Positions 2 to 50,021 are shown, counted from the first letter of the stretch. The stretch is DNA of 64,000 nucleotides from an uncultured Pirellulales bacterium (GCA_964580995.1 CAZOMV010000007.1:11096-75095); one strand, 5' to 3'. Notes: generated by a model from the letters alone, not told the origin. A program made the numbers and translations.

Positions 2-715
2 ATTGTCATTCCGACGTACAACGAGAGCCACAAGATCGGTCGCGATATTGCGGCGGCAGGTGCGTTTCTGGCGGAGCAGGGCTGGCGGGGGGAGATTATC
101 GTGGCCGATGACGGCAGCCGGGACGGGACGGTAGAAGCGGCGAAAGAGAAAAAGGAGCATCTGCCCGGCGGGGTGGAACTGCGGGTGATCGCGTTTGAGC
201 ATCGGGGGAAAGGATACGTGGTGCGGATGGGTATGCAGCAGACGAAGGGGGACTACATTATGTTTGCCGACAGCGGGATGTGTGTGCCGTACCGGGATGC
301 GCTGCGGGGGCTGGAGATGATCCGGAGCGGGCAATGCGAGGTTGCGCACGGGTCGCGGCGATTGTCGCAGACGAAAATCGACCGGCCGCAGAACTGGTAC
401 CGGAAGGTTTGCTCGCGGACCTTCCGCTGGGTGGCGCACCGGTTTATGCAGATACCGGCGGAATTGAAGGATACGCAGTGCGGGTTCAAGATTTATCGCG
501 GGGATGCGGGGCGGGCGATTTATGGCCAGTGCATTACGGACGGGTTTATGTTTGATGTGGAGACGATTCTGCGGGCGAAGAAGCTGGGATATCGGATCGC
601 GGAGTTTGCGATCGAATGGACGTGCGACCGGGACAGCCGGATCACGCCGGCGCGGGATATCGGGCTGATTTTGGGGGAGCTGTCGCGGATTAAGAAGGAT
701 ATCGCGGCAGGTTGA
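2..715 (+). CDS. Family-2 glycosyltransferase (polyprenyl-phosphate sugar synthase-like), 5' end cut by window edge
   Basis: The frame is open from base 2 (IVIPTYNESHKIG...VADDGSRDGT...), showing the GT-A/GT2 N-terminal PxYNE and DD-type motifs. Stop is TGA at 713-715. The ORF track lists only the part from the internal GTG at 101. Confidence 0.85.
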   Translation: MVIPTYNESHKIGRDIAAAGAFLAEQGWRGEIIVADDGSRDGTVEAAKEKKEHLPGGVELRVIAFEHRGKGYVVRMGMQQTKGDYIMFADSGMCVPYRDALRGLEMIRSGQCEVAHGSRRLSQTKIDRPQNWYRKVCSRTFRWVAHRFMQIPAELKDTQCGFKIYRGDAGRAIYGQCITDGFMFDVETILRAKKLGYRIAEFAIEWTCDRDSRITPARDIGLILGELSRIKKDIAAG

Positions 716-752: not shown

Positions 753-1739
753 TTATTTGAAAAATAGTGTATGGTTTTTCCAGGGGCCGAAGGGGAGGAT
801 TTTTTCTTTGTCGGTTTCGGTGGGCTGGATGAAGACCAGTGCCAGGGTTTCGAGGCGGCGGTCGCAATATGTTTTTACCTGATCGGGGGTCATCACCAGA
901 AAGGCCGTGGAGAGGGCATCGGCGGTAGCGCCGTCGGGGGCAGAGGCCCAGGCGGCGAAGCGGCCGGTGACGGGCTGGGCGGTGCGCGGATCGAGGATAT
1001 GCTGGCCCTGCTGGAGGCCGGAACCGCTGAAGGCCTGATCTTTCAAGTGGAGGCTGGCCAGTAGTTTTTGGGGATCGCGGGGATGGCTGATGGTGACGGG
1101 CCAGCCGGTGACGCCGCGGGGTGAGCCGACGGCCAGGGCGGTACTGTAACAGTGGAGCAGGGCCGCGGGGATGTTCCAGTCCCGCAGGAGGACGGCGAGT
1201 TGATCCAGGGCAAAACCTTTGCCGATCCCGCCCAGGTCAATTTGCAGATGATCGATGAGGACCTGCACGGTCAATTTATCTTTGTTGAGCTGGAGGAGGT
1301 TCAGGCCGGTGCGGCGGCGGGCGTAATCCAGTTCATCGGGTGGAATGTTTTGGCGGGGGGTTTTGTCCTTGTTCAGGAGGCAGTTCATCAGCAGGCCGAC
1401 GGTGACATCGAACGCGCCATCCGTTTCGGCGTAGAGACGGGCGCTGATTTCCAGGGCTTCGAAGGTTTGCTCGGACACAGTCAGCGACTGGCCGGGGGGC
1501 AGGTGATTGATGCGGGTGATGTCGCTGTTTTCGACGTAGCGGCTGAGTTTTTGTTCGAGGCGGTCCAGCTCGTTGAAGGCGTCGAGGGAAAACTGGCGGG
1601 CATAGTCTGGTTCCTCGTCGGCGATGATGATCTCAAAGGTGGTGGCCATGGCTTCGTGCTGGAAACGATGGAGGCGGGAGGTGATGTTTTCTTCCTGCGG
1701 GTTCAGATGGATTTGGGTTTTGGTTTCGGATTCAGTCAT
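753..1739 (-). CDS. apbE: FAD:protein FMN transferase (ApbE family)
   Basis: I trimmed the 525-aa ORF to ATG 1739 (MTESETK...), which forms an ATGA overlap with the upstream stop. ApbE-like blocks present: AMATTFEIII, DVTVG, IDLGGIGKGFALD, GSGLQQGQHILDPRTAQP. The upstream ~200 codons are Pro/Arg-rich shadow sequence overlapping the next gene. Confidence 0.85.
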   Translation of the reverse strand: MTESETKTQIHLNPQEENITSRLHRFQHEAMATTFEIIIADEEPDYARQFSLDAFNELDRLEQKLSRYVENSDITRINHLPPGQSLTVSEQTFEALEISARLYAETDGAFDVTVGLLMNCLLNKDKTPRQNIPPDELDYARRRTGLNLLQLNKDKLTVQVLIDHLQIDLGGIGKGFALDQLAVLLRDWNIPAALLHCYSTALAVGSPRGVTGWPVTISHPRDPQKLLASLHLKDQAFSGSGLQQGQHILDPRTAQPVTGRFAAWASAPDGATADALSTAFLVMTPDQVKTYCDRRLETLALVFIQPTETDKEKILPFGPWKNHTLFFK

Positions 1740-3349
1740 GGGGCGGTATCCGGTTTCTGCTGGGAGGCAATGAGACGCTGCTGGAGGTCGCTGGTGAGGT
1801 AGCCGCGGAGTTCGATGGCCGGCCGCAATTCCAGATAGGAATCGAACAGAGGCACATATAAATTTTTCTGGCCGGGGGGCGGGAGCTGGTAGAGTTTTTC
1901 GATAAGCTCGGATTCCAGCGAGGGGGAGGCAATCACCAGGTCGCAGCCGGCGATTTGATCCGTGACCCGGTCCAGCCAGCGGACATGGGGGAAAGAGCGG
2001 AGGTACCAGGGCAGGGGCCAATAGTCGTGGGCGGGGCAAATCACGGCGATGTTCGTGTCCCGGCCTTGCGGCGCGATTTGGACGACGGCCTCGATTCGAT
2101 CGACGATCGGGTAGATGTCGGGGGAAGTATGGCCATAGACGTAGGGATTGGCGGTATCGGCACAGTATTTGTAGTTGGCCTGATACCCCAGCCAGACCAG
2201 ATGGATGGCACCGGCCAGCAGGAGAATGCCAAAGACGATTTTCAAAGGTACAGCCTTGAGCATGGCGAACAGGACCACAATCGCCACCGCCGCCAGCAGG
2301 ATGAAGCCGTGCAGGAAGCCCAGCAGACACCAGGGGGTTTTATAGGGAATGGCGGAGTAGAGGATGGCCATGATGAGGGTGTAGAAGGCGAGGAAACGGA
2401 GCAGGGACAGGCTGATATTGGTTTGTGCGGCAAGGATCGCTTTGCCGCGGCGGGTAAAAATGGCAAGCAGGCCGAGGAGGGCCAGAATCACGATGAGGCT
2501 CTCAGTCCAGAGGGGGCGGTTGGGTTCGTGGTTATAAAGAAGCAGTTGGAGGTAGTAGTACCAGGGGTGGAGGTGAAAGTCATTCTGGCCGGCGCGGTCC
2601 AGATAGGTGGACCAGAAACGGAGGGAATCGAGCACACCGGGGATATGGGTGAAGAAGGAGGAATAAAAGGCGGCGGATACCAGAAACGCAGTGACTATCA
2701 TGAGAAAGACATGGAATATATTGATTTTCGGGCGGCCGGCGGCGAAGGATTTTTTATTGATAAGGTAAACCAGCAGGAGAGACAAAATCATCGAGCCAAA
2801 GGCGATGACGCAGGTCTCCTTGGTGGCGTGGGCCAGGCCGATGAACATGCCGGTCAGTAGAATCCAGATGAGTTTGCGGCTGCGGAGGTAGCGAAAACCG
2901 GCGGCGATGATGCCGAAAGTGAAGCAGACCAGGAGGATTTCCTGGATATAGTAGCGGCTGTAGTAAACCAGGGCGGGCGAAACAGCAACCAGAAATGCGC
3001 TACAGGCAACGATGCGGGTGCCCAGGGCGGGGATGAGCCAGAGATGGAGAACAATCAGCAGGACACCGAATAAAACGGGGACGATGCGGAGGAGAAATTC
3101 GTTGACCTGGGTAATCTTCTGAGCACCGCCCAGCCAGGCGGGGATGAGGGTGAAGTAGTTGAGAGTCGGGCCGTGATACTCGTTATAGTCGTAGATATAC
3201 TCATGAAATTCGAGAAGCCGCCCAAACTTGACAGCGTGGACGGCTTCATCGGTATGCATCGGGCGTAATTCCAATTCCGGCAGCCGCAGGCACAGGGCCA
3301 GCAGGGTCGCCGACAGAATGAGAATCAGGCCGGTTTCACTGGATTTCAT
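1736..3349 (-). CDS. GT-C fold membrane glycosyltransferase (ArnT/PMT-like, TIGR03663-like)
   Basis: 537 aa with 12 or more hydrophobic helices. The first loop is 'RPMHTDEAVHA', matching the GT-C Asp-Glu loop. ATGA-type overlaps occur at both ends (1736-1739 and 3346-3349). Confidence 0.75.
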   Translation of the reverse strand: MKSSETGLILILSATLLALCLRLPELELRPMHTDEAVHAVKFGRLLEFHEYIYDYNEYHGPTLNYFTLIPAWLGGAQKITQVNEFLLRIVPVLFGVLLIVLHLWLIPALGTRIVACSAFLVAVSPALVYYSRYYIQEILLVCFTFGIIAAGFRYLRSRKLIWILLTGMFIGLAHATKETCVIAFGSMILSLLLVYLINKKSFAAGRPKINIFHVFLMIVTAFLVSAAFYSSFFTHIPGVLDSLRFWSTYLDRAGQNDFHLHPWYYYLQLLLYNHEPNRPLWTESLIVILALLGLLAIFTRRGKAILAAQTNISLSLLRFLAFYTLIMAILYSAIPYKTPWCLLGFLHGFILLAAVAIVVLFAMLKAVPLKIVFGILLLAGAIHLVWLGYQANYKYCADTANPYVYGHTSPDIYPIVDRIEAVVQIAPQGRDTNIAVICPAHDYWPLPWYLRSFPHVRWLDRVTDQIAGCDLVIASPSLESELIEKLYQLPPPGQKNLYVPLFDSYLELRPAIELRGYLTSDLQQRLIASQQKPDTAP

Positions 3350-4122
3350 TCGACTGGTTTGCCGAAAACTTCCACTTCGACGTAATGGTTATATTCGTTG
3401 GCGTTGTTGCCTTTGCTGTAGAGGCGGACATAGCGGCCCTGCACTCCTTTGGCATCGATCAGCCGGCCTTCGGAGGTTTCGATGTAATTCATGTCTTTGC
3501 CGACGCCCATACCGCTGGAATTGTCATCATCGTTGTTGAAGATGGTGGCCACTTCGATGAAGTCGGGGTCTTTGGAGACCTGGACGATGACATCGGAGTA
3601 AACGCGGGCCTGCATGTGATAGTGCCAGACCAGGACGGCATAAATATCGTACACCTTTTCCAGGTCGATGGTGACATGCTGGACCATGGGGCCTAATTCG
3701 ACATAACTGCCGTCGGAGCCGGCCTTGTCACCATCGGTGATGTAACTGAGTTCGCCGATGATGGGGTTTTCGTCGGAACTGGTAATGGGTTTGCCGACGG
3801 CAACATTGGTGACACCTTTGGGGGCGAGCATCGGGGGCCGGGCCTTGCCGAGCGGTTTTTCCAGATTGTTCACTTTGATATTCTGGGGCGTGCCGACGAA
3901 CATGGCTGGGGGCAGCTCGATGGGCAGGGGGACCATATCCCCTTCCGCGGTTGGGGCCGGTGTGTCATTATTGGCAACCGGTTCGGGTGCGACAGGCTGG
4001 TTATTAGCAGGCAGCTTGGGGTCAGGACCCGGCTGCTCCTTCTTGCAGGAAACCAGAGCTAGGCTGGCAGAAAGCAAAACAACCGTAAGAAGCCAAACGT
4101 GGGAAGAAAGCAATTTTTTCAT
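3346..4122 (-). CDS. Lipoprotein with C-terminal discoidin (F5/8 type C)-like domain
   Basis: Signal peptide with lipobox (SLALVSC), followed by a Pro-rich linker. The C-terminal jelly-roll-like block ends ...GRYVRLYSKGNNANEYNHYVEVEVFG. Confidence 0.7.
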   Translation of the reverse strand: MKKLLSSHVWLLTVVLLSASLALVSCKKEQPGPDPKLPANNQPVAPEPVANNDTPAPTAEGDMVPLPIELPPAMFVGTPQNIKVNNLEKPLGKARPPMLAPKGVTNVAVGKPITSSDENPIIGELSYITDGDKAGSDGSYVELGPMVQHVTIDLEKVYDIYAVLVWHYHMQARVYSDVIVQVSKDPDFIEVATIFNNDDDNSSGMGVGKDMNYIETSEGRLIDAKGVQGRYVRLYSKGNNANEYNHYVEVEVFGKPVE

Positions 4123-4198: not shown

Positions 4199-4227
4199 AG
4201 TCTAACCTATTTTTTGGCGTTTGTCAA
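4199..4227 (-). promoter_or_regulatory. Candidate sigma70-type promoter (TTGACA-17-TAGACT)
   Basis: On the minus strand, TTGACA (4222-4227) is followed by a 17-nt spacer and TAGACT (4199-4204). This sits about 75 nt upstream of ATG 4122. Consensus match only. Confidence 0.3.
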
Positions 4228-4324: not shown

Positions 4325-5662
4325 TTAAGCCTTTTTCCCGGGGGTAAGCTGAATGGCGGGCGGCTGAAGGCCGGCTTTGGCCAGCAGGGCGTATAAGATG
4401 AACCCGATGATGAAGGCGATGACGGGAGCGGGGTTAATCCAGCCGAATTTCGACGGGCTGACCGTGGGAAGAATTGCCACGATAAAACCGACGGCCCAGG
4501 CGATATAGCCGGCCATATTAATCCCTTTGCGCGGGCCGGCCCATTTGTTGCCGCTGAGGAGATAATCGGCCAGCATGGACCCGCAAATCGGGCCGAAGGA
4601 GGCGCCAATGATGGAGAACACACCTACCAGGTTCAAGGCGACGCCGGTGGCGGCCAGGATGATCGCAATGACCGCACCGATCAAGACCATTACCATCTTA
4701 TTGGCGGTGGGGAACATGGTGCCGATACTGTTGGCAGCGATCAAAGAACAGAAACAGGCTGGGGCAAAGCTGGCGATGGCAAAGAGGATAAACATCCATT
4801 GGGCCAGTTTGCCACCCTGGGACCGGATGACGGCATCGAAGGCGAAGGAATCGAGGGCGGGATTGGCGCCGTGGGCGCCAGCGATGGCGATGAGGGGCAG
4901 ACCACCGGCAAAAACGATGGCCAGGGCCACACCGACCAAACCACCCATTCTTACATCTTTTTCATTGCGGCTGCCCGTGCCAAAATCCACACCGGCGGCA
5001 CCGGCCGTAGCGAAGAAACCGACGACGATGCTAATCATGGTCAGGAATCCCGTGATGGGTTTGGCATTGGGGGCGACCTGAAAATCACCGGCGGTCCCGA
5101 CATTGGAAAAAAATACAAAAAGAATCATAACCAGGGGGACAATAGGAAGGAAGGTAGCGACTTTCGCGACGTATTTGATCCCCTTGACACCCATAAAGGC
5201 GGCAGCCAAACCCCAGATGATGGAGACAACAATAAACGGAGTAGTACCTGGAGTGCCATCTTGTCCCGCGGCCTGAAGGATGAAACTGCTCGCCACGGCG
5301 GTATTAACCGCCAGCCAGCCGAACTGAAGGAGGCCCATCAGCAGGCCGGGCATGAGAAAGCCGCCCAGGGTGCCGTAGGTGGAGGAACCGACGACATAGA
5401 GAGGGTAGCCGGTTTTCATGCCGAAAAGGCCGGGAACCAGATAGAAGAGGAAATGGCAGATCAGGGCGGCGGCGACCAGGCCCAGCAGGCTCAGGCCCAG
5501 GCCCGCCTGCGGCAGGGTGCCGTTGGCGATCTGCATATAAAAAACGACCCACAAAAAGATGCCCGCATAGGTGGGGGCGGTGTTTTTGTACCAGGGGGCC
5601 CGGTTTTCGGGCGGATTGGGTACGGCCATTTTCAGATAATTCGGAACCATTTCGTTACTCAT
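4325..5662 (-). CDS. NCS1 / cytosine-purine permease-like transporter (CodB-like)
   Basis: 445 aa with about 12 TM helices. Blocks align by eye to E. coli CodB (YGTLGGFLMPGLLMGLLQFGWLAVN; DFGTGSRNEKDVRMGGLVG). AAGGAG lies 8 nt before ATG 5662. Confidence 0.7.
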   Translation of the reverse strand: MSNEMVPNYLKMAVPNPPENRAPWYKNTAPTYAGIFLWVVFYMQIANGTLPQAGLGLSLLGLVAAALICHFLFYLVPGLFGMKTGYPLYVVGSSTYGTLGGFLMPGLLMGLLQFGWLAVNTAVASSFILQAAGQDGTPGTTPFIVVSIIWGLAAAFMGVKGIKYVAKVATFLPIVPLVMILFVFFSNVGTAGDFQVAPNAKPITGFLTMISIVVGFFATAGAAGVDFGTGSRNEKDVRMGGLVGVALAIVFAGGLPLIAIAGAHGANPALDSFAFDAVIRSQGGKLAQWMFILFAIASFAPACFCSLIAANSIGTMFPTANKMVMVLIGAVIAIILAATGVALNLVGVFSIIGASFGPICGSMLADYLLSGNKWAGPRKGINMAGYIAWAVGFIVAILPTVSPSKFGWINPAPVIAFIIGFILYALLAKAGLQPPAIQLTPGKKA

Positions 5663-5674
5663 AACAGATTCTCC

Positions 5675-8113
5675 TTATAAAAAACCTTTCGCGACGTTTT
5701 GTTTTTTGCTGGTCCCAGTCAGCGTCAAGAGGGTGTGGATGACGACGAGGACCGCCAGAGCTATCGTAGTGTACTGGTGCGTATGATAGAGGAAGAACTG
5801 GCCGGTGGTGCCGAAGAGGTTGAACATGCTCAGGACGCTGGAGAGCATGACGGGCAGGGCCAGCAGGCCGATCAGCCAGAAACAAAGTTTCCGGAGCGGA
5901 CAAACGGAGGTGGCGGCCAGGAACCGGCTGGGATGCGCTCCCAGCAGGATCAGCAGGGCCAGACAGATCATGAAGGGCGGGGCGATGGTGCAGTGGAGCA
6001 TGAGGAGATAGCCGGTCATGGGTTTGCCGGTAAGGAAGAAGGCATAGAAGCCGGTGCCGGCCAGGACCAGGAAGCAGAGGAGGCCGGCCAGATAGATCAG
6101 CTTCTTCAGGAAGCCGTACCAGCGGTTGGAGCTGGGGACGGCTGGTTCCGCCGCGGCCATTTTCGAACCGGCGGCCAGGGCGGCCGCGACGGTCAGGCCC
6201 CGGAGGCAGTAGAGCAGCAGAATGGCGGCGATCAGGGCCGAGGCGGCGAAGGCGACCGTTTTCAGCATGGGACGAAATACGAAGGAACTGTTGAAAAGGG
6301 AGACATAGGTTTCGTCCAGAGGAAGGAAGTGAATCATCCTCTTGAACAGGCCGCGGTCGGAAGGCAGGGGGCTGTCGATAGCCAGGGCGGCCTGGTAGAA
6401 GGGAGCGTCGTTGGTGTGGCAGTCGGGACAGCCGCGAACGCCCAGCGATTGCGAGGCCGGCCGGACATCGTGGGCCAGAGGCCAGAGATACGGCTGGGCC
6501 GCTTCGTTTTCCTGTGAAACCAAGGCTCCGGCGTCATCCAACTGGTACATTTTACCGCCGCAAATATACACGGCAGTGCCCTGTACGAACGGCTGGCCTT
6601 TCAGGGTGGTTAGTACCTGGGTAATCATATTTTTGAACCAGGCTTCCTTTTCGGCCGTTTCCGGTTTCGCTACCTCTCCGTCAGCGAGATTTTCTTCCGG
6701 CATTTCCGGCCAGGTAACCGAGGCAGGCAGTTCATAGCCATGTAAGAGAATTTGGCTGGCAACCTGTTTGACCTCTTCGGGAACCAGGGGAACGACCTGG
6801 CCCTCTTTAAGCTGCGCCCAGAAGGCGGGCCACAGCATTTTGTGAGGTGCGATTTTGCCGGGCGGGGAATTGGGATCCACCGGCGGCAGTTCCGCCAAAA
6901 CCGGAGAGAGAATATGGGGCAGGGCATCCGGAGCCTTGTTCACCGTTTGCAGACCCAGGCTGTGCGCCCGGGATGTTTTTACAAAGGCAGCGGCATCGGT
7001 GGGCCAGGGGCCGCTGTGACAGGCCGTGCAGGCGAGCTTTTCAAAATGGACCGTGGGGATACCCACGTGTGTAGGTTTGGGTGAACCGAGCCGGCCGGCA
7101 TCAGGATTCTGAGGTTCATCGCTGCCGAGATGACAGCCTTCGCAGGTCAGGGTGGTAATGGCGGAATTATTATCCGCTCGTTTTTCCCCTTCATACCCGT
7201 GATTGATATTGTGATCGACGGTATTGCGATGGCAATCCACGCAGGCCAGGCCGGCTTTCAGGTGGACATCTTCATCCACATCCGTCCGCTGAGCATGAGT
7301 CTGGCTGGTGGAATGACAGAAATAGCAGCGTTCATTGGGAATAGCACGGGTCAGATGCAACTGAACCTTGTTCTCGCTATTGAAGCGGCTGGCATCGTAC
7401 TGAACGACGGGATAATCCAGGGATCCATCTTCCGGCACCCAGTGATCGGGTAATTTTTTTACCGAGCCGGTCACCCAGGCAAAGCTGCTGGTGGCCGTGT
7501 TGGCCCAGCCGAAATTCTGTTCGGCCAATTGTATGGCACACTGGGCCTGATCGTGGAAGGGTTCGGCATCGTGACAGGCCAGGCAATTGATTTCCATCGT
7601 ACCGGAGACATTCCAGCGGCCGGCAATGGGATCAATCGTTTCGCCGGATGGATCCGCGACACTGCCGCCGGGGAAATGGCGGCTGAAGACCTGGGTGAAA
7701 TCCCAGTCGGACAGCCCTACCTGCTGGGGTTTGTAGGTTCCTTCCCAATTGCGATACGACAAAGGAATCTGGGTGGCGGCGGCACAATCCCAGTAAATCC
7801 AGGGTTCCCCTTTATGGCCGGGATCGATATTTTCCTCGGCCGCATTGAAGTGCCAGCCATGACTGATTTTATCATAATCATGACATCGCCCACAGGTCTG
7901 CTTGGTGGAAAAAGGCCGATCGGAATCAGGGAAAATGGTCCCCGCATCTTTGTCATAGATCTTAATCAGGTGGACCGGCTGAGACAGATTTCCATCACCG
8001 GTATCCCCGATCATGGAGGAAGCACTTTCCTGAGCCGGTAAAGGCAAGGTACAAGCTACAAGGCAGATCACGGCCAGTGCGGTGATCCGGGACACAATAT
8101 TACGTTTTATCAT
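5675..8113 (-). CDS. Heptahaem c-type cytochrome fused to a C-terminal polytopic (cytochrome b-like) membrane domain
   Basis: Seven CxxCH motifs: CGRCH, CLACH, CYFCH, CVDCH, CEGCH, CTACH, CPDCH. There is an N-terminal signal anchor. The last ~200 aa form about 5 hydrophobic helices containing His residues. I prefer ATG 8113 (GGGAG 7 nt upstream) over ATG 8134. Confidence 0.85.
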   Translation of the reverse strand: MIKRNIVSRITALAVICLVACTLPLPAQESASSMIGDTGDGNLSQPVHLIKIYDKDAGTIFPDSDRPFSTKQTCGRCHDYDKISHGWHFNAAEENIDPGHKGEPWIYWDCAAATQIPLSYRNWEGTYKPQQVGLSDWDFTQVFSRHFPGGSVADPSGETIDPIAGRWNVSGTMEINCLACHDAEPFHDQAQCAIQLAEQNFGWANTATSSFAWVTGSVKKLPDHWVPEDGSLDYPVVQYDASRFNSENKVQLHLTRAIPNERCYFCHSTSQTHAQRTDVDEDVHLKAGLACVDCHRNTVDHNINHGYEGEKRADNNSAITTLTCEGCHLGSDEPQNPDAGRLGSPKPTHVGIPTVHFEKLACTACHSGPWPTDAAAFVKTSRAHSLGLQTVNKAPDALPHILSPVLAELPPVDPNSPPGKIAPHKMLWPAFWAQLKEGQVVPLVPEEVKQVASQILLHGYELPASVTWPEMPEENLADGEVAKPETAEKEAWFKNMITQVLTTLKGQPFVQGTAVYICGGKMYQLDDAGALVSQENEAAQPYLWPLAHDVRPASQSLGVRGCPDCHTNDAPFYQAALAIDSPLPSDRGLFKRMIHFLPLDETYVSLFNSSFVFRPMLKTVAFAASALIAAILLLYCLRGLTVAAALAAGSKMAAAEPAVPSSNRWYGFLKKLIYLAGLLCFLVLAGTGFYAFFLTGKPMTGYLLMLHCTIAPPFMICLALLILLGAHPSRFLAATSVCPLRKLCFWLIGLLALPVMLSSVLSMFNLFGTTGQFFLYHTHQYTTIALAVLVVIHTLLTLTGTSKKQNVAKGFL

Positions 8114-8143: not shown

Positions 8144-9517
8144 TTACACCAGAAAATCTTCCGGTTTGAAATCCAGCCGGCGGGCGGCTTCCACGGCTTC
8201 GTTGACTTTCAAGACCGCGACGGCGGTTTCGTAGCCGATTTCGCCGGGGCAGCTCAGTTTGGCCTTGCCGCGAACGGCATCGAAGAAATTTTGCAGGTGC
8301 GGCTGGTGAAACGGCTGATCCATTTCCACCAGCAGATTGTACTTGGGAGGTTTGGGAGAACTTCGCACATCCACCACGGATTTGCTGGGTTCGGGCTGGC
8401 CGATACCGGCGTCCCGTTTGATATACCGCTTCTTTTCCCACTGGTACCATTGTTCTTCCGTGACGCCCTTTTCGCGATAGACGGCATTCCGGGCGGCTTC
8501 TTCGGAAGTGGACAGGGAACCCTGATCGCCCATGAAGGTTTCAAAGTAGCCGTTGCTGCTGTTGGTGGTCAGGGTTTGATACGAGGCACGCACGACACCT
8601 TCTTTGGTTTCATATTCATAGATGGCGATTACATTGTCGTACCACTCGTGATCGGTCCAGTAATCGACGCCGCCGCTGGCCATGACGGAGCGGGGCTGGG
8701 TCTGAAGGAACCAGGTATAGATATCGATCTGATGGGAGCCGAGGTCCACAATCGGACCGCCGCCCAGGCCCTTGTACCAGCGCCAATTCCGGAACTGTTT
8801 CATGTCTTTGTAGCCATATTTATTCAGGGTGGCTTCATCGAGTTCGGTATTTTTGGCATATCCTAAATCTTCACAAGCGGCCCGGCTGCGGTTCCACTGG
8901 CCGTTGATGGTGGTGATGCGGCCCAGGATTTTGGCTTCCTGGATGAGTTTCTCGTAGCAGAAGATGTAACGGGGATTGCTGCGCCGCTGGTGGCCGATCT
9001 GCAGCAGTTTGCCGGTGGCTTTGGCGGCTTCCACCATCTTCCGGGCGTTTTCCAGGGTGTTGGACATTTCCTTTTCGCAATAGACATGGAGGCCCGCGTT
9101 CATGCCGGCGATGGCATGTTCGGCATGCCAGAAGTCGGGGGTGGCAACGATCAGGGCATCCAGGTCTTTCTCCTTATCCAGCATTTCTTTGTAATCGGTA
9201 TAAGGAGTACCCACATGGCCGAGCTGTTTCTGCCGGCTAAGCTGGCCGGAAACCCGTTTGAGATTCCAATTTTCCCAGATATCACAAACCGCTTTGAAGC
9301 AGATACCGGAATTTTCACCCATCTTCAGGCAGGCGTCCAGGAGTACCTGACCCTCGGCACCGGCACCCAGCAGGGCGACATTAATCTGATCGGGCTTACC
9401 AGTCAGCACGGTCTGCCCCTTGGCCAGGGGCGAGAACATCAGCCCCGCACCGGCGGCGGCGGTGGAACGCAGAAAGGTGCGTCGATTCATACCTTGATTC
9501 GTATTCACTTCAGTCAT
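8144..9517 (-). CDS. TAT-exported Gfo/Idh/MocA family oxidoreductase
   Basis: Twin-arginine signal MNRRTFLRSTAAAGAG, Rossmann motif ALLGAGAEG, and a Gfo/Idh/MocA-like core (ATPDFWHAEHA...YCEKEM). Confidence 0.9.
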   Translation of the reverse strand: MTEVNTNQGMNRRTFLRSTAAAGAGLMFSPLAKGQTVLTGKPDQINVALLGAGAEGQVLLDACLKMGENSGICFKAVCDIWENWNLKRVSGQLSRQKQLGHVGTPYTDYKEMLDKEKDLDALIVATPDFWHAEHAIAGMNAGLHVYCEKEMSNTLENARKMVEAAKATGKLLQIGHQRRSNPRYIFCYEKLIQEAKILGRITTINGQWNRSRAACEDLGYAKNTELDEATLNKYGYKDMKQFRNWRWYKGLGGGPIVDLGSHQIDIYTWFLQTQPRSVMASGGVDYWTDHEWYDNVIAIYEYETKEGVVRASYQTLTTNSSNGYFETFMGDQGSLSTSEEAARNAVYREKGVTEEQWYQWEKKRYIKRDAGIGQPEPSKSVVDVRSSPKPPKYNLLVEMDQPFHQPHLQNFFDAVRGKAKLSCPGEIGYETAVAVLKVNEAVEAARRLDFKPEDFLV

Positions 9518-9558: not shown

Positions 9559-12500
9559 TTATTCGCTAATTTGCACTTTGAGGCCTTCCAGCTTACTGCC
9601 GTCCAGAGCGCGGAAGCGGGCACAGGCGGTCCAGCTGGCACCACCCTGGGTTACCTTCATCAGCAGGGTATTCCAGCCCTGTTTCAAGGTGACTTCCACT
9701 TTGTCCTGGGCGGGTTCCAGTGCGCGGGAAACATTTGTACCATGAACGGCCTGGCCATTCAACCAGATTTTGATCCCGTCATCGCTGCCGGCCTCCAGCC
9801 GGACCTTCTGCTCCTTATCGGACCATACCTTGGTGCGAAGGTAGGCGGCCCGGTTGTCACCGCCGATGGCCTTGTCCAGTTCGGCCAACCAGGGACGGTT
9901 GGCATCGCTGGAGGGCGGCAGGACGGCCCATTTCACGTCCTGGGCATCCGGTTGTTCCGGGGCAAAGACGGTATCGAACAAGGCGATATTGTTCGCATTA
10001 TCCTTGGTGTAGGGGCCGGAATATTCCCAACTCACGATATAATCGTCGAACCGTTCGGCGGCGTTGATGATTTCGCGGGCCTGCTGGCGCAGGGTATCAT
10101 TTTGGGTCTGTTTTTCGATCTTCTGCATAACCGCTTTGGCCCGCTGGGGATCCGAACCCATCAGGGTCTGGGCAAGCTGGACGGCGGCCACTTCGGCTTC
10201 CTGCCGCAAAGCGTCGTTCTCCAGCAAAGATTCTGCCATGGCCAGGGCTTCCCAGGATTTGGCATTGGGCAGATTGGTGACCACCATTTTCTTTTCGTTC
10301 TCGTTGGCGGCCATATCCATCGCTTCCTGATAGCGTTTAAGCATATCCGCCGGCGAGAGGTCGCCAGCCAGCCCGATCAGCCGCACATAGCCGCGAAACG
10401 CCAAGGCCCGATGCGTCGCCTCTTTCGTGGATTGGACTACCTTGAGTAAATCCGCCATGGGTTTGGCGTTGGGCCATTCGCCCAAGGCCCGGATCGCGGC
10501 AATCTGCAGCTCCGCCTGATCGCTTTGCAAGGCTTCCGACAGGACGGGGAGGGCACTATCGGCCTGAATCCGGCCCAACAATTCCAGCAAAGAGGCTTTC
10601 ACGGACGAATCTTTCACGGAGGGATATACGGCCAGGACATCTTTGGCCCGCTGGTTTTCATCGGTGATCTTCAAGGCGACAGCGGCGGCAGTTTTGACTG
10701 CCTCGCCGCGCAGCCGTTCATCTTGGATCTGGATTAAAAGCTCCGTCAGTTTAGCCATATCATCAGGACCGGCGGCTGTCTTGAGCGTTTTCCAGGATTC
10801 CATCTGGATTTCCGGGTCGGAATGGGTTGCGGTTTTCAGCAACAGGGGAGCCGCCGATTTGATGTCCCGTTTTTCGATGCTTTTAATCAGTTCCACCGCC
10901 ATTTTGGCATCGGTTTTGGGTATCTGAGCGAGGATTTCCTTATCGATATCCGGGCCGCTCAGGGTGTAAAGACTGTCGCGGGCGGTTTGCTGTTCCGCGC
11001 CTTTGCGGACGGCGGCGGCCTCCGCCAGTACCAAAACAGAACTGGCATCGCCTACCTGGGCCATCGCGGTCAAGGCCGCTAGCCGAACCGATTCGAGATC
11101 GCTGTTGGCGGCTTTGACCACCGCCTCTTTGGCGGCGCCATCGCCGCGATCGGCCAGGGAAGCGAGCAACTGCACCTGACCGGCTTCGGGCAGGGCGGCC
11201 AGTTCCGCGGCAATCCGCTTGATATTCAGGCCGGGGGCTTCCCGCACCAGTTCATTGGCGACGGTTTGAATGTCGGGCTGTTCGTTTCGCAAGGCATCCA
11301 GAATTATTTTTTCGGAGTTTTTGGAATCCGCATAGACCATGCCTTTAAAGGCGGCCATGCGAATCGCGGGGGGATAGTCCTGGGCGAACATTTGTTTATA
11401 GATTTCCAAAGCTCTGGCATTTTTCTTTTTGCTGACCAGATCATCGCCGCAGCGCAGATACGCATCGCAGAACACCATTTGCTGATTCTCCGCGGCAGCG
11501 GGGACCGCCTTGGCCAGGAGGTCCGCGGCCTGCTCGCCGCCGATCTTACCGAGGGCGATAATAGCTGCCGAGGCAATATCCGCGGGGGTATTGCCGTCGC
11601 TGATCAGTTGGCCCAGCGGGGCAACCGCACTTTCCGCCCGCCGCTGGCCGAGGGTATTGATAATGCCGACTTTTACATTGCCGTCGGTCTGGTTCAGAAC
11701 CTGCAACAAAGCCTCATCCGCAGCCGGGGAAGAAATCCGTTCCAGGGCATAGCGGGCCATATCCGCAGTATCGGGATTTTTGACCATTTCGGCTAATACC
11801 GGGACCGACTGTTCGGTGCCCATGATGCTGAGCTGCTTGCAGACGAACTGTTTGGCAGCCAAGGTGGCGTTGGACTGCAAAAACTGCACTAGCGATTTTT
11901 CGATTTGCTTTAAGGCGTCGGGGGAACCGTAGGAGGCCTTGATGTAATCGTACAATTCCGTCAGGGGGATCCGATCCTGGCCGTATTCATAGGCAGTGCA
12001 GCTTGACAGCAAGGATTCCAGGCGGGAGGTATCCGGCTTCCAGGGCAGCGGGGTGGTATCGGCGGCCAGATCACCGAAGGCGAACTGGATGCCGTCCAGA
12101 TAATGCTGGAGGATCATGCGGTTCCAGAGAAGAGGGTGGTTGTGACCGAGCGAGCAGTAGAAAACCCGCCCTTTGCCGAAAGTACGTACCCAACTGACGG
12201 GATAATCCGTTTCGCCGGGGCGCAGATCCGCAACCTGGCTGGTGGCCGGGTCACTCATATCCAGGCTCATCAGAACGCGGGCATTTTCCCGCAGCTTCAT
12301 TTGTTTAATGCGATAGATTTCGTCGCTGATCTTGAAGCCTTTCCCCTCGAACGCCTGCATAATGGCGTGTTTGGGGTCGTCGATTTTGAAGGCCCAGGTG
12401 CCGCCGGCCGTCCACGGATGGCCGTCAAAGACGCCGCCCATCATTTCCGCCGCTTCGGGCCAGTTGTAAAAATTATCGGTGGCGGCATGAATCCCAATCA

Positions 12501-12906
12501 CACCTTTGCCGCCTTTGACAAAATCCATCAGGCTTTTGCGCAATTCGGGATCGTCAAAGGTCAGCCGCACAGTGTTGTTGAACAGCACCCCATCAAATTG
12601 ATTCAAGCTGTCCGGCCGGAACACGTTCATATCCGTGCTGGTGGTTACGGCAAAAGCGCCGGTCTTCTGGCCCATGACCTCCAGGGCCTTCTCCACATAG
12701 GGAATGGAGCTGTGCTGGAAGCCCAGGGTTAGGCTGAACACCAGCAGTTTGCGCGGCTGGGCCGGCTGGACGCGGGCCTTGTCCGGCGCGGCCTGCTCGA
12801 TCTGCTGGATTTCTTCCGGCGAAACGGCCCATCCGGCCTGGGGCAAAAAATACCAAACCAATAGAAGCATCAGGGAGGTTACAATATACTTTTTCCATCT
12901 ATTCAT
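9559..12906 (-). CDS. Secreted ThuA-domain / HEAT-repeat / C-terminal beta-sandwich protein (1115 aa)
   Basis: Signal peptide present. ThuA-like block: LLVFSLTLGFQHSSIP...GVIGIHAATDNF...VFYCSLGHN. The following ~600 aa are HEAT/PBS-lyase-like helical repeats. The C-terminal ~160 aa (…GSDDGIKIWLNGQAVH…LLMKV…) form a module shared with the protein encoded at 24955..27516. Confidence 0.85.
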   Translation of the reverse strand: MNRWKKYIVTSLMLLLVWYFLPQAGWAVSPEEIQQIEQAAPDKARVQPAQPRKLLVFSLTLGFQHSSIPYVEKALEVMGQKTGAFAVTTSTDMNVFRPDSLNQFDGVLFNNTVRLTFDDPELRKSLMDFVKGGKGVIGIHAATDNFYNWPEAAEMMGGVFDGHPWTAGGTWAFKIDDPKHAIMQAFEGKGFKISDEIYRIKQMKLRENARVLMSLDMSDPATSQVADLRPGETDYPVSWVRTFGKGRVFYCSLGHNHPLLWNRMILQHYLDGIQFAFGDLAADTTPLPWKPDTSRLESLLSSCTAYEYGQDRIPLTELYDYIKASYGSPDALKQIEKSLVQFLQSNATLAAKQFVCKQLSIMGTEQSVPVLAEMVKNPDTADMARYALERISSPAADEALLQVLNQTDGNVKVGIINTLGQRRAESAVAPLGQLISDGNTPADIASAAIIALGKIGGEQAADLLAKAVPAAAENQQMVFCDAYLRCGDDLVSKKKNARALEIYKQMFAQDYPPAIRMAAFKGMVYADSKNSEKIILDALRNEQPDIQTVANELVREAPGLNIKRIAAELAALPEAGQVQLLASLADRGDGAAKEAVVKAANSDLESVRLAALTAMAQVGDASSVLVLAEAAAVRKGAEQQTARDSLYTLSGPDIDKEILAQIPKTDAKMAVELIKSIEKRDIKSAAPLLLKTATHSDPEIQMESWKTLKTAAGPDDMAKLTELLIQIQDERLRGEAVKTAAAVALKITDENQRAKDVLAVYPSVKDSSVKASLLELLGRIQADSALPVLSEALQSDQAELQIAAIRALGEWPNAKPMADLLKVVQSTKEATHRALAFRGYVRLIGLAGDLSPADMLKRYQEAMDMAANENEKKMVVTNLPNAKSWEALAMAESLLENDALRQEAEVAAVQLAQTLMGSDPQRAKAVMQKIEKQTQNDTLRQQAREIINAAERFDDYIVSWEYSGPYTKDNANNIALFDTVFAPEQPDAQDVKWAVLPPSSDANRPWLAELDKAIGGDNRAAYLRTKVWSDKEQKVRLEAGSDDGIKIWLNGQAVHGTNVSRALEPAQDKVEVTLKQGWNTLLMKVTQGGASWTACARFRALDGSKLEGLKVQISE

Positions 12907-12951: not shown

Positions 12952-14391
12952 TTACTGTTCCAACTGTTTGATGCGAATATTCCGGAACCAGATCGGGTGG
13001 CCGTGATACTGCAAGCCGATCAGCCCGTCCCGGGCCATATCCTTGTAGGCAATATTGAATTTATTGGGGGAGCCGTCGGGATTTTTGCCGGCCTGCGTCC
13101 ACTGGTTCAAATCCATATCGATGACCGGCACTTCATTCAGTACCACGTGAATCTTGTTATCCCGGCAGGTGATGATATAACGGTTCCACTGGCCGGCGGG
13201 TTTGACGGCATTCGCGCTGGGCGAAAGGCAATCGTAGATCGCGCCGCACTGGCCGTGCGGGGTGCCGTCGCCGGTTTCATGAATCTGCACTTCGATGGTG
13301 GTATTAATCCAGTCATTCAGGTCGGCACAACGTAAAAAGACACCGCTGTTGGCGTCTTTGGACAATTTGAATTCCAGATCCAGGATATAATTGCCGAACC
13401 GTTCCTTGGTCCAGATATCGCCGCCGCCGCGCGGGCTGAGCAAGCCGCCCTCTTCGACCACCCAACTGCCTTCGCTGGCCGCCCAGCCGGTCAGATCCAT
13501 ACCGTTGAAAAGCCAGCGCCAGGTGGGATAGCCCAATTTGGCACTTTCCTGGTCGAAATAGCGGATACACTGGATGATATCGGGGATGGAGTTATCCCAG
13601 TTGTATTCATATTCAATCGTAAAGACACCCTTGAAATTCTGGCGGTCCAGTTCGGCCAGCATCGCCTTGGCATCATTTTTGCCCGTTCCCCAGATAACAT
13701 CATGGGCATCGGGATTATTGAATTCGTTGACATCCTTGAAGTGCAGGGAAATGATGCGGCCGGAGAGTTTTTTCAAGGCCTCGACCGGATTGACGCCGGA
13801 ACGCATCCAGTGGCCGGTATCGGCACAGGCCCCGATGCGTTTGGAACGGCCCTGGCATACCTCCAGCACCTTGTCCGGATTCCAGTAGCCGGAAGGTTTG
13901 GGATGGTTGTGCAGGGCGACATTGATTTCATATTCATTGCAAAGGCGGTCCACCAGATCAAAGGCCTCGACCGGGGGTTCGGAGGTGATGGTTTCGATTC
14001 CCATCTCTTTGGCGAAATCGAAAACCTTGCGGCATTCCGCTTCGTCATTGGGCAATCCGACCACCCCGTAGCAAACCAGTTGAATGCCGGCGGCGGCCAG
14101 TTTTTCCCGGGCTGCCTTGCGGATTTCCGGGGTGGCCATATGGCCGAACGGGGCATCGGGCTTTTCCTTGCTGAAGGATTGGCCGGGGAAGGCTTCGATA
14201 TAGCTAAGGCCCATCAGTGCGGCATTATCCACCGCTTCGCAAAACGTGGCTTTATGGAAAGTCCAGGCCTGCACGGCCAGCCGCCAGTTTTCCGGGGCAT
14301 TCAAAACCGCATGTCCGGCCTGGGCCGGGGCCGCCAGAACTACAGAACCAATCATTCCCAAAAACATTAAAAATACATAACGCTTACTCAT
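12952..14391 (-). CDS. Secreted xylose-isomerase-like TIM-barrel (sugar phosphate isomerase/epimerase family) fused to DUF1080 (3-keto-disaccharide hydrolase-like) domain
   Basis: Signal peptide present. TIM-barrel blocks: IGACADTGHW, LHFKD, FTIEYE. DUF1080 blocks: LFNGMDLTGW...NSGVFLR...IEVQIHE...GAIYD...GLIGLQYHGHPIWFRNIRIKQL. Start is ATG 14391, with GGAG 9 nt upstream; the ORF-track start at 14400 is GTG. Confidence 0.85.
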   Translation of the reverse strand: MSKRYVFLMFLGMIGSVVLAAPAQAGHAVLNAPENWRLAVQAWTFHKATFCEAVDNAALMGLSYIEAFPGQSFSKEKPDAPFGHMATPEIRKAAREKLAAAGIQLVCYGVVGLPNDEAECRKVFDFAKEMGIETITSEPPVEAFDLVDRLCNEYEINVALHNHPKPSGYWNPDKVLEVCQGRSKRIGACADTGHWMRSGVNPVEALKKLSGRIISLHFKDVNEFNNPDAHDVIWGTGKNDAKAMLAELDRQNFKGVFTIEYEYNWDNSIPDIIQCIRYFDQESAKLGYPTWRWLFNGMDLTGWAASEGSWVVEEGGLLSPRGGGDIWTKERFGNYILDLEFKLSKDANSGVFLRCADLNDWINTTIEVQIHETGDGTPHGQCGAIYDCLSPSANAVKPAGQWNRYIITCRDNKIHVVLNEVPVIDMDLNQWTQAGKNPDGSPNKFNIAYKDMARDGLIGLQYHGHPIWFRNIRIKQLEQ

Positions 14392-14446
14392 TTTTTGCAC
14401 TCCATATAAAATTGAAAACGTATAAAACCTGTTTTACTCAATTACT

Positions 14447-15787: not shown

Positions 15788-15816
15788 ACTTTACATCCTT
15801 TTATTTTTATTATTCC

Positions 15817-17130: not shown

Positions 17131-17157
17131 AATCGTATCCTGAAATATCCAGCTATC

Positions 17158-18519: not shown

Positions 18520-18561
18520 GGCTTGTCCCTTTTCCAAAGTCCTACCATGACTGGTGTATTG

Positions 18562-20981: not shown

Positions 20982-21025
20982 AATTCTTCTCCAAATCGTA
21001 AGTTACGGTTATGTAATGGTTACAT

Positions 21026-22198: not shown

Positions 22199-22532
22199 GT
22201 TTTTTTCCTTTCGCAAAAAATTCCCGGTCATTTACCTTAAATTATTATAAAATTATGTGAAATAGTGGTTTACGATTATTCCATTGCAGCCTGTCGCAGA
22301 TGCCATAACCTGATGAAACGACTAGTTTTAACTATTAGTGAATATATTTCAATAAAAATTCGCCTCCCTTTCCTCTTTTTCCCTGTTCTCTTCTATGTGA
22401 AACTTCTTCACCAGCATACATCCGTCGGTAGCTTAATTCTACTCTTTTTATTAATTTTGGTTGACAATACCCAAAAAAAACGGGTTAATCTACCAAAATT
22501 AGCCATTGGTAAATTTTATACAAAATTTTCCC

Positions 22533-23543
22533 ATGAAAAAAACATCCAAAGTACAGCCTGCGATTTTTTATGATGTGGACCGGACCTACCGTGCCGACTC
22601 GTGTGAACCGTTGCGGAAAGCCAAGGAAAGAGGGGAACTGGCCCATGCCGCCTTTGCCCGCCGGAGTTATCCGGGGTACAGGCTGCCGCCCAAAATCATG
22701 CCGGAACTCTGCGTGGCCTGTGTATGGGATGCCAAACAGGACCAGACCTGGGGGCTGCCGATGCACCGCAATGAAGGGATCGAATTAGGCTATCTGACCC
22801 GCGGGAAACTCGATTTCATCGTCGAAGAAAAGTTATATAAACTCAAGAGCGGCGCCCTGACCGTAACCCGTCCGTGGCAGCCCCACAAAGTAGGCGATCC
22901 GCTGGTCCATGCCAGCCGGATGCACTGGCTGATCCTGGATGTCGGGGTTCGCCGGCCCAATGAGGCGTGGAAATGGCCCAACTGGTTTACTTTTTCTCCC
23001 GGCGATTTGGCCCGCTTGACGGAACTGCTGCGCTATAACGAACAGCCGGTCTGGCAGGCGAACGAACGAATCGAACGTTGTTTCGAAAATATCGCCGAAT
23101 ATGTCGGCACCGGCCAGCCGGAACAGGTCCAGACGCGTTTGCAGCTCAATATCAACGAATTGTTTCTGGAAGTGTACGAGATGCTCCAGGAGCAGGACAT
23201 TCAGCTCGATTCCCATCTGGCCACCACCAAACGCAATGTCGAGATGTTTCTGGAAGCCCTGCCCAAACATATCGATTACCCCTGGACCCTGGAGTCCATG
23301 GCCAAACACTGTGACCTGGGCCGCTCCCGCTTTACCCACTACTGCCGGCAAATCACCAACATGTCCCCCACCGAATACCTGATCCATTGCCGGATCGAAG
23401 CGGCCAAAAACATCCTGAAATACCATCCCCACAAAAAAATAACGGAAATCGCCTTTTCCTGCGGATTTGAATCCAGCCAGTATTTCGCCAATGTCTTCAA
23501 ACGCTACGTCGGCTGCTCGCCCAAGCTGTTTCGCGCCGGGTAA
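22533..23543 (+). CDS. AraC-family transcriptional regulator
   Basis: Cupin-like N-terminal half plus a C-terminal AraC double HTH (…WTLESMAKHCDLGRSRFTHYCRQITNMSPTEYLIHCRIEAAKNIL…IAFSCGFESSQYFANVFKRYVGCSP). Divergent from the sugar cluster. I prefer ATG 22533; position 22506 is TTG. Confidence 0.9.
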   Translation: MKKTSKVQPAIFYDVDRTYRADSCEPLRKAKERGELAHAAFARRSYPGYRLPPKIMPELCVACVWDAKQDQTWGLPMHRNEGIELGYLTRGKLDFIVEEKLYKLKSGALTVTRPWQPHKVGDPLVHASRMHWLILDVGVRRPNEAWKWPNWFTFSPGDLARLTELLRYNEQPVWQANERIERCFENIAEYVGTGQPEQVQTRLQLNINELFLEVYEMLQEQDIQLDSHLATTKRNVEMFLEALPKHIDYPWTLESMAKHCDLGRSRFTHYCRQITNMSPTEYLIHCRIEAAKNILKYHPHKKITEIAFSCGFESSQYFANVFKRYVGCSPKLFRAG

Positions 23544-24731: not shown

Positions 24732-24954
24732 ACATCTTGCTTATCGACAAAGAATGAAAGGCAATTCAATACCATTTCCGGAACCACACTGGATTATAGG
24801 ACCATTATTGCCATATTCGAATCCCTGCCTTTCATACCTGCGTAATTTTTTCCAGGTTGGCCGGCCAAATCCGGAAATACGTTCTGGATTAAAAAACGGA
24901 ACGGATTACAATATAAGACCGATATGCCTTTTTAAATACGTCTTGGAGATACAC

Positions 24955-34701: not shown

Positions 34702-34832
34702 TTTTGCCTCCAAACAGAAAGAATACTGCCAACCATAATTATGTCCTGTCAATAAACCTGGAACCAGCCAACGTTTTGCTTATATCACAGGGGCCAGAAA
34801 CGGGGTCGGACCTCTTCAATTTCTTCCTCATT

Positions 34833-45556: not shown

Positions 45557-45813
45557 AATTACTATCTCCAATAAAGTAAATCAAGCCGATTATCTATATG
45601 TGTATTTCTTCAAATCGCTTAGCAAACCAATCTCTCATGGGCACCAGCCCTGCCGGCTGCCCACTATGCCGATCCTGTTTCGCTGGAACACCTATTTTCC
45701 TCTTTGTGGCTCGCAATGTAAAGACCAAAATAGACAATGGCATAGGCATAATTTGTCCCTCCAGGTTTCCTGCGCAAAGCCCCGTTTTCCCTATATCTCG
45801 CCATCCCTTCGCC

Positions 45814-49901: not shown

Positions 49902-50021
49902 AAATAGCTTCTCCTGAACCATAGAAAAGGATTTTCGCTCTCGTATCCTGTGCTTATAAGGCGGAGTTCTGAAACACGGTTTTCGCTCTCCCTCGCTTGC
50001 CGCGGAACGCGCCCATTCCCA

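Follow-up and report, generated by a model that had tools for sequence, protein, structure and literature searches.

Background

In the formate dehydrogenase FdnGHI of E. coli (PDB 1KQF), a catalytic subunit exported by the twin-arginine translocation (TAT) pathway is combined with an electron-transfer subunit that ends in a single membrane helix and with a four-helix cytochrome b. Electrons released in the periplasm travel to a quinone-binding site. Here, we analyze a locus with the same order of parts in a 64,000-nucleotide stretch of DNA, called the window below, from an uncultured Pirellulales bacterium (GCA_964580995.1 CAZOMV010000007.1:11096-75095). The locus encodes a seven-haem (heptahaem) cytochrome c fused to a cytochrome b, and it lies directly downstream of a gene for a TAT-exported oxidoreductase of the Gfo/Idh/MocA family. 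The fusion is very probably an electron-transfer module that connects the quinone pool with an enzyme in the periplasm. More specifically, we propose that the locus encodes a periplasmic sugar dehydrogenase:menaquinone oxidoreductase in which electrons would flow from sugar to menaquinone, and we give this reading a probability of roughly 0.6.

The cytochrome b part is homologous to FdnI, with three of the four haem-ligand histidines in register, and the proposed path of electrons is analogous. However, the likeness to FdnGHI is one of how the system works, not of family membership. FdnG is a molybdoenzyme and FdnH carries four [4Fe-4S] clusters, whereas their places are taken here by a nicotinamide enzyme and seven c haems. 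In addition, FdnI His18 corresponds to a tyrosine, and the wire and the cytochrome b form one polypeptide in the window.

The characterized protein with the closest architecture is CbcL of Geobacter sulfurreducens. It, too, joins an all-bis-His periplasmic multihaem cytochrome c and a membrane b domain that uses menaquinone in a single polypeptide (PMC9129911). By contrast with our protein, which has seven c haems and five helices, CbcL has nine and six. Its c domain is also compact, at about 29 kDa for nine haems versus about 585 residues for seven. Moreover, CbcL oxidizes menaquinol in the service of extracellular electron transfer and has no dehydrogenase partner gene. We set the two proteins apart on the basis of these descriptions.

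Cytochrome-linked sugar dehydrogenases are known from other systems. LacABC, the FAD-dependent glucose dehydrogenase (FAD-GDH) of Burkholderia and the fructose and gluconate dehydrogenases of acetic acid bacteria resemble the proposed system in that they are TAT-exported, face the periplasm and reach the respiratory chain through a multihaem c subunit. This subunit has three haems, and the enzymes are not known to include a cytochrome b. Their catalytic subunit contains FAD (with or without a 3Fe-4S cluster), which solves the step from two-electron to one-electron transfer, whereas the window has a nicotinamide-type Gfo/Idh/MocA enzyme and an FdnI-like membrane part. Within this group of flavoprotein-cytochrome c dehydrogenases (PMC8121099, PMC6719666), the LacABC glucoside 3-dehydrogenase makes 3-keto-glycosides.

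The glucose-fructose oxidoreductase (GFOR) of Zymomonas, BT2158 of Bacteroides and the C-glycoside 3-oxidoreductase DgpA belong to the same group as the oxidoreductase in the window, which shares the TAT signal and the GxGxxG motif. The window operon also contains a 3-keto-disaccharide hydrolase and TIM-barrel genes of the corresponding pathway. The bound cofactor of these enzymes is thought to be recycled with a second sugar, and no cytochrome partner has been described for them, while here a c/b module is tied to one orthologue group. Liu et al. (2021) knew of no acceptor for the TAT-exported Gfo-type 3-dehydrogenase BT2158 and postulated "another as yet unidentified sugar" (PMC8121099).

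Gene and protein layout

The cytochrome gene occupies the minus strand, where the longest open reading frame (ORF) extends from 8134 down to 5675 and encodes 819 amino acids. Residue numbers below refer to this ORF. The second in-frame ATG, at 8113, is probably the true start (812 amino acids), because it follows a GGGAG Shine-Dalgarno sequence with a 6-nt spacer and because a 93% identical homologue, P0001, begins at the equivalent ATG (MIK...). A first-pass annotation of this DNA had correctly placed the gene at 5675-8113, but gave no strand. A plus-strand reading of this interval was rejected, since the frame is riddled with stops. With the start at 8113, we also obtain the gaps given by that annotation, which are 30 nt to the stop codon of the upstream Gfo/Idh/MocA gene and 12 nt to the downstream gene.

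Hydropathy and an AlphaFold2 (AF2) model predict an N-terminal hydrophobic export signal at about residues 8-35. They also predict five C-terminal hydrophobic helices, at about residues 620-654, 671-702, 708-733, 746-768 and 776-818, with predicted local distance difference test (pLDDT) values of about 75-97. An earlier estimate of about five helices is refined to one anchor helix and a four-helix cytochrome b. The model is based on an alignment of 119 sequences (pLDDT 80.1, predicted template modelling score 0.79); an alignment of 23 sequences gave values below 50 in the haem core. The predicted cytoplasmic loops carry 10 lysines and arginines, versus 1 (+2) in the predicted periplasmic loops. 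Therefore, a topology with the c haems outside fits.

The heptahaem domain

Seven CxxCH motifs occur at residues 81, 184, 270, 298, 331, 369 and 569, in agreement with the original count. Since the composition of the protein predicts only 0.03 such motifs, we rejected a chance occurrence. No other ORF within the 64-kb window has multiple CxxCH motifs. All seven cysteine pairs are invariant in 119 homologues, one of which has CYFCQ at the third motif. Seven further histidines (H95, H291, H308, H356, H363, H391 and H555) are invariant in the same set, and H55, H407 and H543 are nearly so. There are therefore enough candidate ligands for seven bis-His haems, and the conservation pattern suggests that all seven haems are probably of this kind. 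No CxxCK or other variant haem motif is present in the fusion protein.

The domain is roomy, with about 83 residues per haem over a total of about 585. It includes a haem-free alpha/beta subdomain at about residues 408-545 that is well predicted by AF2. Within this subdomain, the window protein and P0001 alone have an acidic insertion (PEENLADGEVAKPETAEKEAWFKN; 6644-6712, minus strand; residues about 475-497), which partly overlaps a stretch of low model confidence (pLDDT <50 at residues 482-485).

The first-pass annotation did not recognize the haem-domain family, and our searches bear this out. Pfam covers only residues 286-374 (Cytochrome_C7 and c3_2), no Pfam family matches most of the domain's length, and the PDB yielded no sequence or fold match. 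A full-length profile searched against the PDB gave only a local match to NrfA at the level of haem motifs (E = 0.007). We rejected membership in the NapC/NirT/NrfH/CymA type, because PF03264 does not match the window protein and the anchor is C-terminal rather than N-terminal; some homologues have weak local hits. The catalytic NrfA, HAO and octahaem types were also rejected, given the absence of a Pfam or NCBIfam match and of a variant motif, and the seven invariant candidates for distal histidines.

The cytochrome b domain

The membrane part consists, according to its sequence, of the anchor helix followed by a four-helix cytochrome b of the FdnI/PF01292 type. A default Pfam scan of the full protein found nothing in the C-terminus. 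However, most homologues of the haem domain are unfused and have a separate neighbouring gene of 170-215 amino acids. Two of these genes pass the PF01292 cut-off (39.4 and 37.2 bits), and the C-terminal domain in the window is 46% and 42% identical to them (E = 1e-41 and 3e-34). We assign the window copy to PF01292 because of this transitive homology. The public JGI and NCBI pipelines give the stand-alone genes the name "formate dehydrogenase subunit gamma".

A word-index search with the single C-terminal domain gave two matches, and further b domains were then gathered by locus mining and profile searches. PF01292 matches 19 of 21 b domains of the family (best E = 2.8e-22). A profile of the 21 matches E. 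coli FdnI (PDB 1KQF chain C) with E = 1.7e-8, aligning profile positions 9-160 with FdnI residues 10-174. A comparison with cytochrome b families had been suggested as a check in the first-pass annotation, and it identifies the domain as this type.

In the alignment, H714, H786, H800 and Y681 correspond to FdnI His57, His155, His169 and His18, respectively, and K749, F752 and W753 to K114, F117 and W118. In FdnI (1KQF), His57 and His155 are the ligands of the periplasmic-side haem b, and His18 and His169 are those of the cytoplasmic-side haem b, with His169 contacting the inhibitor in the quinone site.

To measure conservation, we collected b domains from 86 loci and kept a non-redundant set of 83. 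H714 occurs in 82 of the 83 and H786 likewise in 82, so a conserved His pair does exist across homologues. H800 is found in 59, Y681 in 70 and H734 in only 17. The His-bearing segments originally pointed out in the helices are real (H714, H734, H784/H786 and H800), but only one pair among them is invariant, and H800 pairs with a tyrosine. Specifically, Y681 and H800 occur together in 58 domains (Fisher p = 5.6e-8, ignoring shared ancestry). Among the 59 domains with H800, position 681 is Tyr in 58 and His in one; among the 24 without H800, it is Tyr in 11. These patterns indicate that a periplasmic-side haem b site is universal in the family, and that about 70% of members, including the window protein, have a non-canonical cytoplasmic-side site made up of His and Tyr.

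The single domain with His at position 681 is encoded downstream of 10001-12485 in locus L052, from a metagenome-assembled genome (MAG) of Sedimentisphaerales (JBELAN010000019.1). It also has H800, and its full FdnI-type pattern of four histidines may be the ancestral state. In locus L004, the gene call for the stand-alone cytochrome b (11905-12552) includes an additional hydrophobic segment (MFRIVSVIVFLVVLGGICIHCIILAAA) at the N-terminus, ahead of the four-helix core. This segment is either a fifth helix or the result of a miscalled start codon.

At the cytoplasmic end of helix III, FdnI has G112-Q113-K114...F117-W118. The corresponding residues in the family are Gly in 33, Gln in 49, Lys in 75, Phe in 81 and Trp in all 83 domains. 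The window protein has L-R-K...F-W.

Fused and separate forms

A database search found at least 1973 relatives, which fall into two groups by length, of about 620-650 and about 780-815 amino acids. The short haem proteins still end just after the first helix (consensus ...SFVFRPxLK followed by the helix), and the next gene encodes a cytochrome b. For these reasons, we interpret the window protein as a heptahaem subunit with a C-terminal anchor that is fused to a cytochrome b subunit of four helices. In 86 loci (84 non-duplicate), a separate cytochrome b gene is directly downstream in 75, the two are fused in 9 and none was detected in 2. Therefore, the single polypeptide that the first-pass annotation described is correct for the window, but it is the minority form, as about 90% of the 84 loci have two adjacent genes. 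In a neighbour-joining tree of haem domains, the fused forms occupy at least five scattered places, Acidobacteriota among them. This distribution implies repeated fusion or fission, a classic mark of subunits of one complex.

A pattern scan with one genome per species identified at least 574 species with a relative. Among the matches listed, the carriers are mostly Planctomycetota (Sedimentisphaerales, Phycisphaerae and "Pirellulales"), along with Bryobacterales/Acidobacteriota, Calditrichota and Omnitrophota. The nearest relatives of the host are Planctomycetes bacterium ADurb.Bin412 and UR.bin216, whose cytochromes are 84-86% identical to that in the window.

Conserved gene neighborhood

To assess synteny, we compared the window proteins with all ORFs of the 84 non-duplicate loci; denominators below are the loci with enough flank. 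An orthologue of the adjacent Gfo/Idh/MocA enzyme is directly upstream on the same strand in 68 of 70 loci, which belong to several phyla, and has the RR motif in all 52 tested. This supports the previously suggested coupling of the cytochrome to an exported Gfo/Idh/MocA enzyme. The cytochrome b is fused or is the next gene downstream in 78 of 79 loci. The enzyme itself retains the Rossmann GxGxxG and the catalytic-region motifs of its family in 74 orthologues. Its nearest solved relatives are DgpA, 1,5-anhydrofructose reductase, the periplasmic GFOR and glucuronide-3-dehydrogenase.

In the window, the cytochrome gene is part of a 14-gene operon that runs on the minus strand from 22231 down to 753; most of the gaps between its genes measure 9-46 nt. 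Other members are conserved as well. Within 8 kb downstream, genes for the flavin transferase ApbE, an F5/8-type-C protein and a PMT glycosyltransferase occur in 44, 43 and 41 of 54 loci, respectively, while TIM-barrel/3-keto-disaccharide hydrolase genes occur within 8 kb upstream in 38 of 47.

Proposed function and alternatives

In the mechanism that we propose, the TAT-exported Gfo/Idh/MocA enzyme would take the place of FdnG and would oxidize a periplasmic sugar or glycoside, most likely at C3. The electrons would enter the seven haems of a domain that stands in the place of FdnH and likewise ends in a single C-terminal membrane helix. From the c haems they would pass to the periplasmic-side haem b (H714/H786) and, in the window protein, then probably to the cytoplasmic-side H800/Y681 site, with menaquinone as the presumed terminal acceptor. 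Should the reduction of menaquinone take place at the cytoplasmic face, as it does in FdnI, the module would be the electrogenic half of a redox loop. FdnI homology, the conserved His pair and synteny support the earlier suggestion that the protein wires a periplasmic dehydrogenase to quinone; we infer the electron transfer itself and its direction, as well as the docking of the Gfo/Idh/MocA enzyme, the menaquinone partner, the second haem b and the substrate.

A broader interpretation, which we regard as tentative, is that the locus represents a widespread, so far undescribed class of respiratory enzymes in which a new heptahaem fold, together with an FdnI-like cytochrome b that has a His/Tyr cytoplasmic-side site, connects a TAT-exported, nicotinamide-bound Gfo/Idh/MocA enzyme directly to menaquinone. 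Glycoside oxidation by the 3-keto pathway might then conserve energy as half of a redox loop, and ApbE might attach a covalent flavin to a non-canonical target that would convert between two-electron and one-electron transfer.

Several points weigh against the sugar-to-menaquinone reading. Many hosts are presumably anaerobes. The direction of electrons is not readable from sequence. Bound NAD(P)H gives up two electrons at once as a hydride, whereas haems accept one electron at a time, and we saw no flavin or other group that could convert between the two. Conservation of ApbE points to a flavin carrier, but the canonical flavinylation motif [ST]GA[ST] is absent from all proteins of the operon. 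With few haems for its size and a large subdomain that has none, the c domain could also have a function other than wiring. The window copy scores 18.2-21.5 bits against PF01292 (18.2 bits for the C-terminal 201 residues on their own), which is below the gathering cut-off of 30.1. Only three (H714, H786 and H800) of the four FdnI ligands are present in the window protein, as the position of His18 is a tyrosine, and Leu-Arg replaces the Gly-Gln of the FdnI quinone site, so that neither a second haem b nor a quinone site at the cytoplasmic face is certain. Finally, CbcL passes electrons from menaquinol to the periplasm (PMC9129911).

The last of these points raises the question of whether the module runs in reverse. 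The fusion would then be a menaquinol dehydrogenase, similar to CbcL or CymA, that feeds the periplasm, where the Gfo/Idh/MocA enzyme would reduce 3-keto-sugars or pass the electrons on. Chains of bis-His haems are reversible wires, and relatives are common in MAGs labelled Sedimentisphaerales, which we take to be anaerobic. CbcL also shares the domain logic, as a menaquinol oxidase with a periplasmic multihaem cytochrome c on a dihaem b (PMC9129911), and 3-keto-sugar pathways require a reduction step (PMC8121099). Nevertheless, we consider the reverse direction unlikely, given that the b domain aligns with the quinone-reducing FdnI, in a gene order that copies the quinone-reducing fdnGHI. The operon is also catabolic, with TIM barrels of hydrolase or lyase type, a 3-keto-disaccharide hydrolase and a putative transporter. 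Moreover, reduction of a ketone (around -0.2 V) by menaquinol (-0.07 V) is thermodynamically uphill.

Two further alternatives give the cytochrome a different role. The Gfo/Idh/MocA enzymes could run redox-neutral ping-pong reactions on bound NAD(P), such that the cytochrome only resets mis-poised cofactors, in either direction. Redox-neutral cycles have been proposed for GFOR and BT2158 (PMC8121099), and there is one cytochrome for several exported Gfo/Idh/MocA genes (in the window, Pfam confirms at least two, and five ORFs begin with an RRxFLK-type sequence). Yet one orthologue group is strictly adjacent to the cytochrome in a one-to-one manner (68/70), which suggests a dedicated partner; we rate this possibility below that of the reverse direction. 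The least probable of the alternatives is that the haem domain is itself an enzyme, which receives its electrons from the cytochrome b and reduces or oxidizes some small molecule, whether inorganic or organic, in which case the adjacency to sugar genes would be regulatory or incidental. The low haem density, the large non-haem subdomains, the failure to match any known electron-transfer cytochrome family or fold and the weak local similarity to NrfA haem motifs (E = 0.007) fit this idea. However, for each haem there is an invariant histidine that could serve as the distal ligand, no CxxCK or variant motif occurs, and synteny with the Gfo/Idh/MocA gene in 68 of 70 loci across phyla is hard to call incidental.

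Other genes in the window

Features of the cytochrome gene and its surroundings are listed in Table 1.

Table 1. Coordinates of the cytochrome gene, its domains and surrounding genes within the window
Feature	Position	Strand	Basis or remarks
Heptahaem c / cytochrome b fusion, likelier coding sequence	5675..8113 (ORF to 8134)	-	ORF calls, P0001 start
Predicted signal peptide or signal anchor, residues 8-35	8030..8113	-	hydropathy; AF2 helix 2-29
Periplasmic heptahaem domain, residues 36-620	6275..8029	-	CxxCH motifs, homologue alignment, AF2; Pfam for 286-374 only
CxxCH codons	7880-7894, 7571-7585, 7313-7327, 7229-7243, 7130-7144, 7016-7030, 6416-6430	-	
Transmembrane anchor helix of haem c part, residues 621-654	6173..6274	-	homologue alignment, AF2; follows conserved FVFRPxLK motif
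FdnI-like (PF01292) four-helix cytochrome b domain, residues 671-819	5678..6124	-	Pfam and profile searches
H714 codon	5993..5995	-	FdnI His57; 82/83 homologues
H786 codon	5777..5779	-	FdnI His155; 82/83 homologues
H800 codon	5735..5737	-	FdnI His169; 59/83 homologues
Y681 codon	6092..6094	-	FdnI His18 position; 70/83 homologues; co-varies with H800
TAT-exported Gfo/Idh/MocA oxidoreductase, proposed catalytic partner	8144..9517	-	Pfam; orthologue directly upstream in 68/70 loci
445-amino-acid polytopic membrane protein, putative transporter	4325..5662	-	downstream in 31/54 loci
F5/8-type-C lipoprotein	3346-4122	-	
PMT/PMT_2 glycosyltransferase (GT-C)	1736-3349	-	
ApbE flavin transferase	753-1742	-	
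Glycosyltransferase family 2 (GT2), opposite strand beyond ApbE	101..715	+	GT2 within 8 kb downstream in 33/54 loci
ThuA and HEAT protein	9559-12906	-	
Xylose-isomerase-like TIM barrel and 3-keto-disaccharide hydrolase	12952-14400	-	
Four ORFs with RRxFLK-type N-termini	14447-19860	-	one scanned; other three by reading translations
TIM-barrel protein and Gfo/Idh/MocA enzyme, both without N-terminal signal; operon start	19989-22231	-	translations read
AraC-family regulator, divergent from operon	22506..23543	+	

Directly downstream of the cytochrome, the first-pass annotation had noted a permease. The gene does encode a polytopic protein of 445 amino acids, but it has no match in Pfam, NCBIfam or the PDB, so that a permease function is a deduction. 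It is strongly conserved in 39 loci, notably at its N-terminus (MSN..P.Y...PNP..NR.PWYK.TAP.YAGIFL), and in two loci that we checked, L004 and L005, an MFS_1 gene takes its place. The protein may represent a new family of transporters for a substrate or product of the pathway.

The F5/8-type-C, PMT and ApbE genes overlap by 4 and 7 nt. The same block, with GT2 on the opposite strand, also occurs in L003 (14726-17311), L004 (14205-18122) and L006 (15616-19855). PMT and ApbE form one ORF in L003, and apparently also in L046, L056 and L084. The only [ST]GA[ST] match in the window is in a PALP-domain ORF beside trpA, which is probably tryptophan synthase beta. An eLife survey of flavinylation mentions none of the cluster's families.

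A scan for promoters and terminators around the cytochrome gene gave counts no higher than in shuffled sequence. One sigma-70-like match (4199-4227, minus strand; TTGACA, 17 nt, TAGACT; 10/12) lies in the 202-nt gap before the F5/8-type-C gene and could serve an F5/8C-PMT-ApbE sub-operon as its internal promoter, although such sites are no commoner than in shuffled sequence.

Of the four ORFs with RRxFLK-type N-termini, the one scanned (14447-15787, minus strand) carries a TAT signal and encodes an enzyme of the GFO_IDH_MocA_C2 type. The ThuA and HEAT-repeat protein, 1115 amino acids long, has a signal peptide but lacks CxxCH motifs. Its gene lies immediately upstream of the Gfo/Idh/MocA-cytochrome pair here and in L001, and is found within 8 kb in only 20 of 47 loci. 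A second pair of ThuA and C2-type Gfo/Idh/MocA genes (43233-45571, minus strand) has no adjoining cytochrome.

Farther away, the window encodes a DUF2961 protein of 973 amino acids (24595-27516, plus strand) and an alpha-L-rhamnosidase of 1102 amino acids with an F5/8-type-C domain (46614-49922, minus strand), both of which fit a glycan-degrading lifestyle of the host. It also encodes two eukaryote-like repeat proteins, one with leucine-rich repeats (772 amino acids; 32434-34752, minus strand) and one with ankyrin repeats (599 amino acids; 52881-54680, minus strand).

Implications

The literature that we searched contains no description of a module of Gfo/Idh/MocA enzyme, multihaem cytochrome and cytochrome b. 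Its parts are of known kinds, namely a multihaem cytochrome c, an FdnI-like cytochrome b and a periplasmic Gfo/Idh/MocA enzyme, and both c/b fusions (CbcL) and cytochrome-c-linked sugar dehydrogenases (LacABC, FAD-GDH) exist. What is new is their combination, the haem-domain family, the His-to-Tyr change in the cytochrome b and the breadth of the conserved module.

Exported Gfo/Idh/MocA enzymes carry tightly bound NAD(P) into a periplasm that lacks a free nicotinamide pool, which raises the question of where their electrons go. A dedicated cytochrome c/b wire to the quinone pool is a candidate answer. At least 574 species genomes have a relative of the cytochrome, and the three-part module is conserved in the loci examined. 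If the proposal is true, it would explain how the exported Gfo/Idh/MocA enzymes that form large families in Planctomycetota and Acidobacteriota dispose of electrons, and would add both a new multihaem fold and a new type of partner for the FdnI family. A natural route of direct electron transfer from sugar to haem would also be usable for biosensors and bioelectrochemistry. For the organisms themselves, periplasmic sugar oxidation in such polysaccharide degraders would be respiratory and possibly proton-motive, and estimates of energy yield for the carriers in sediments, digesters and soils would change.

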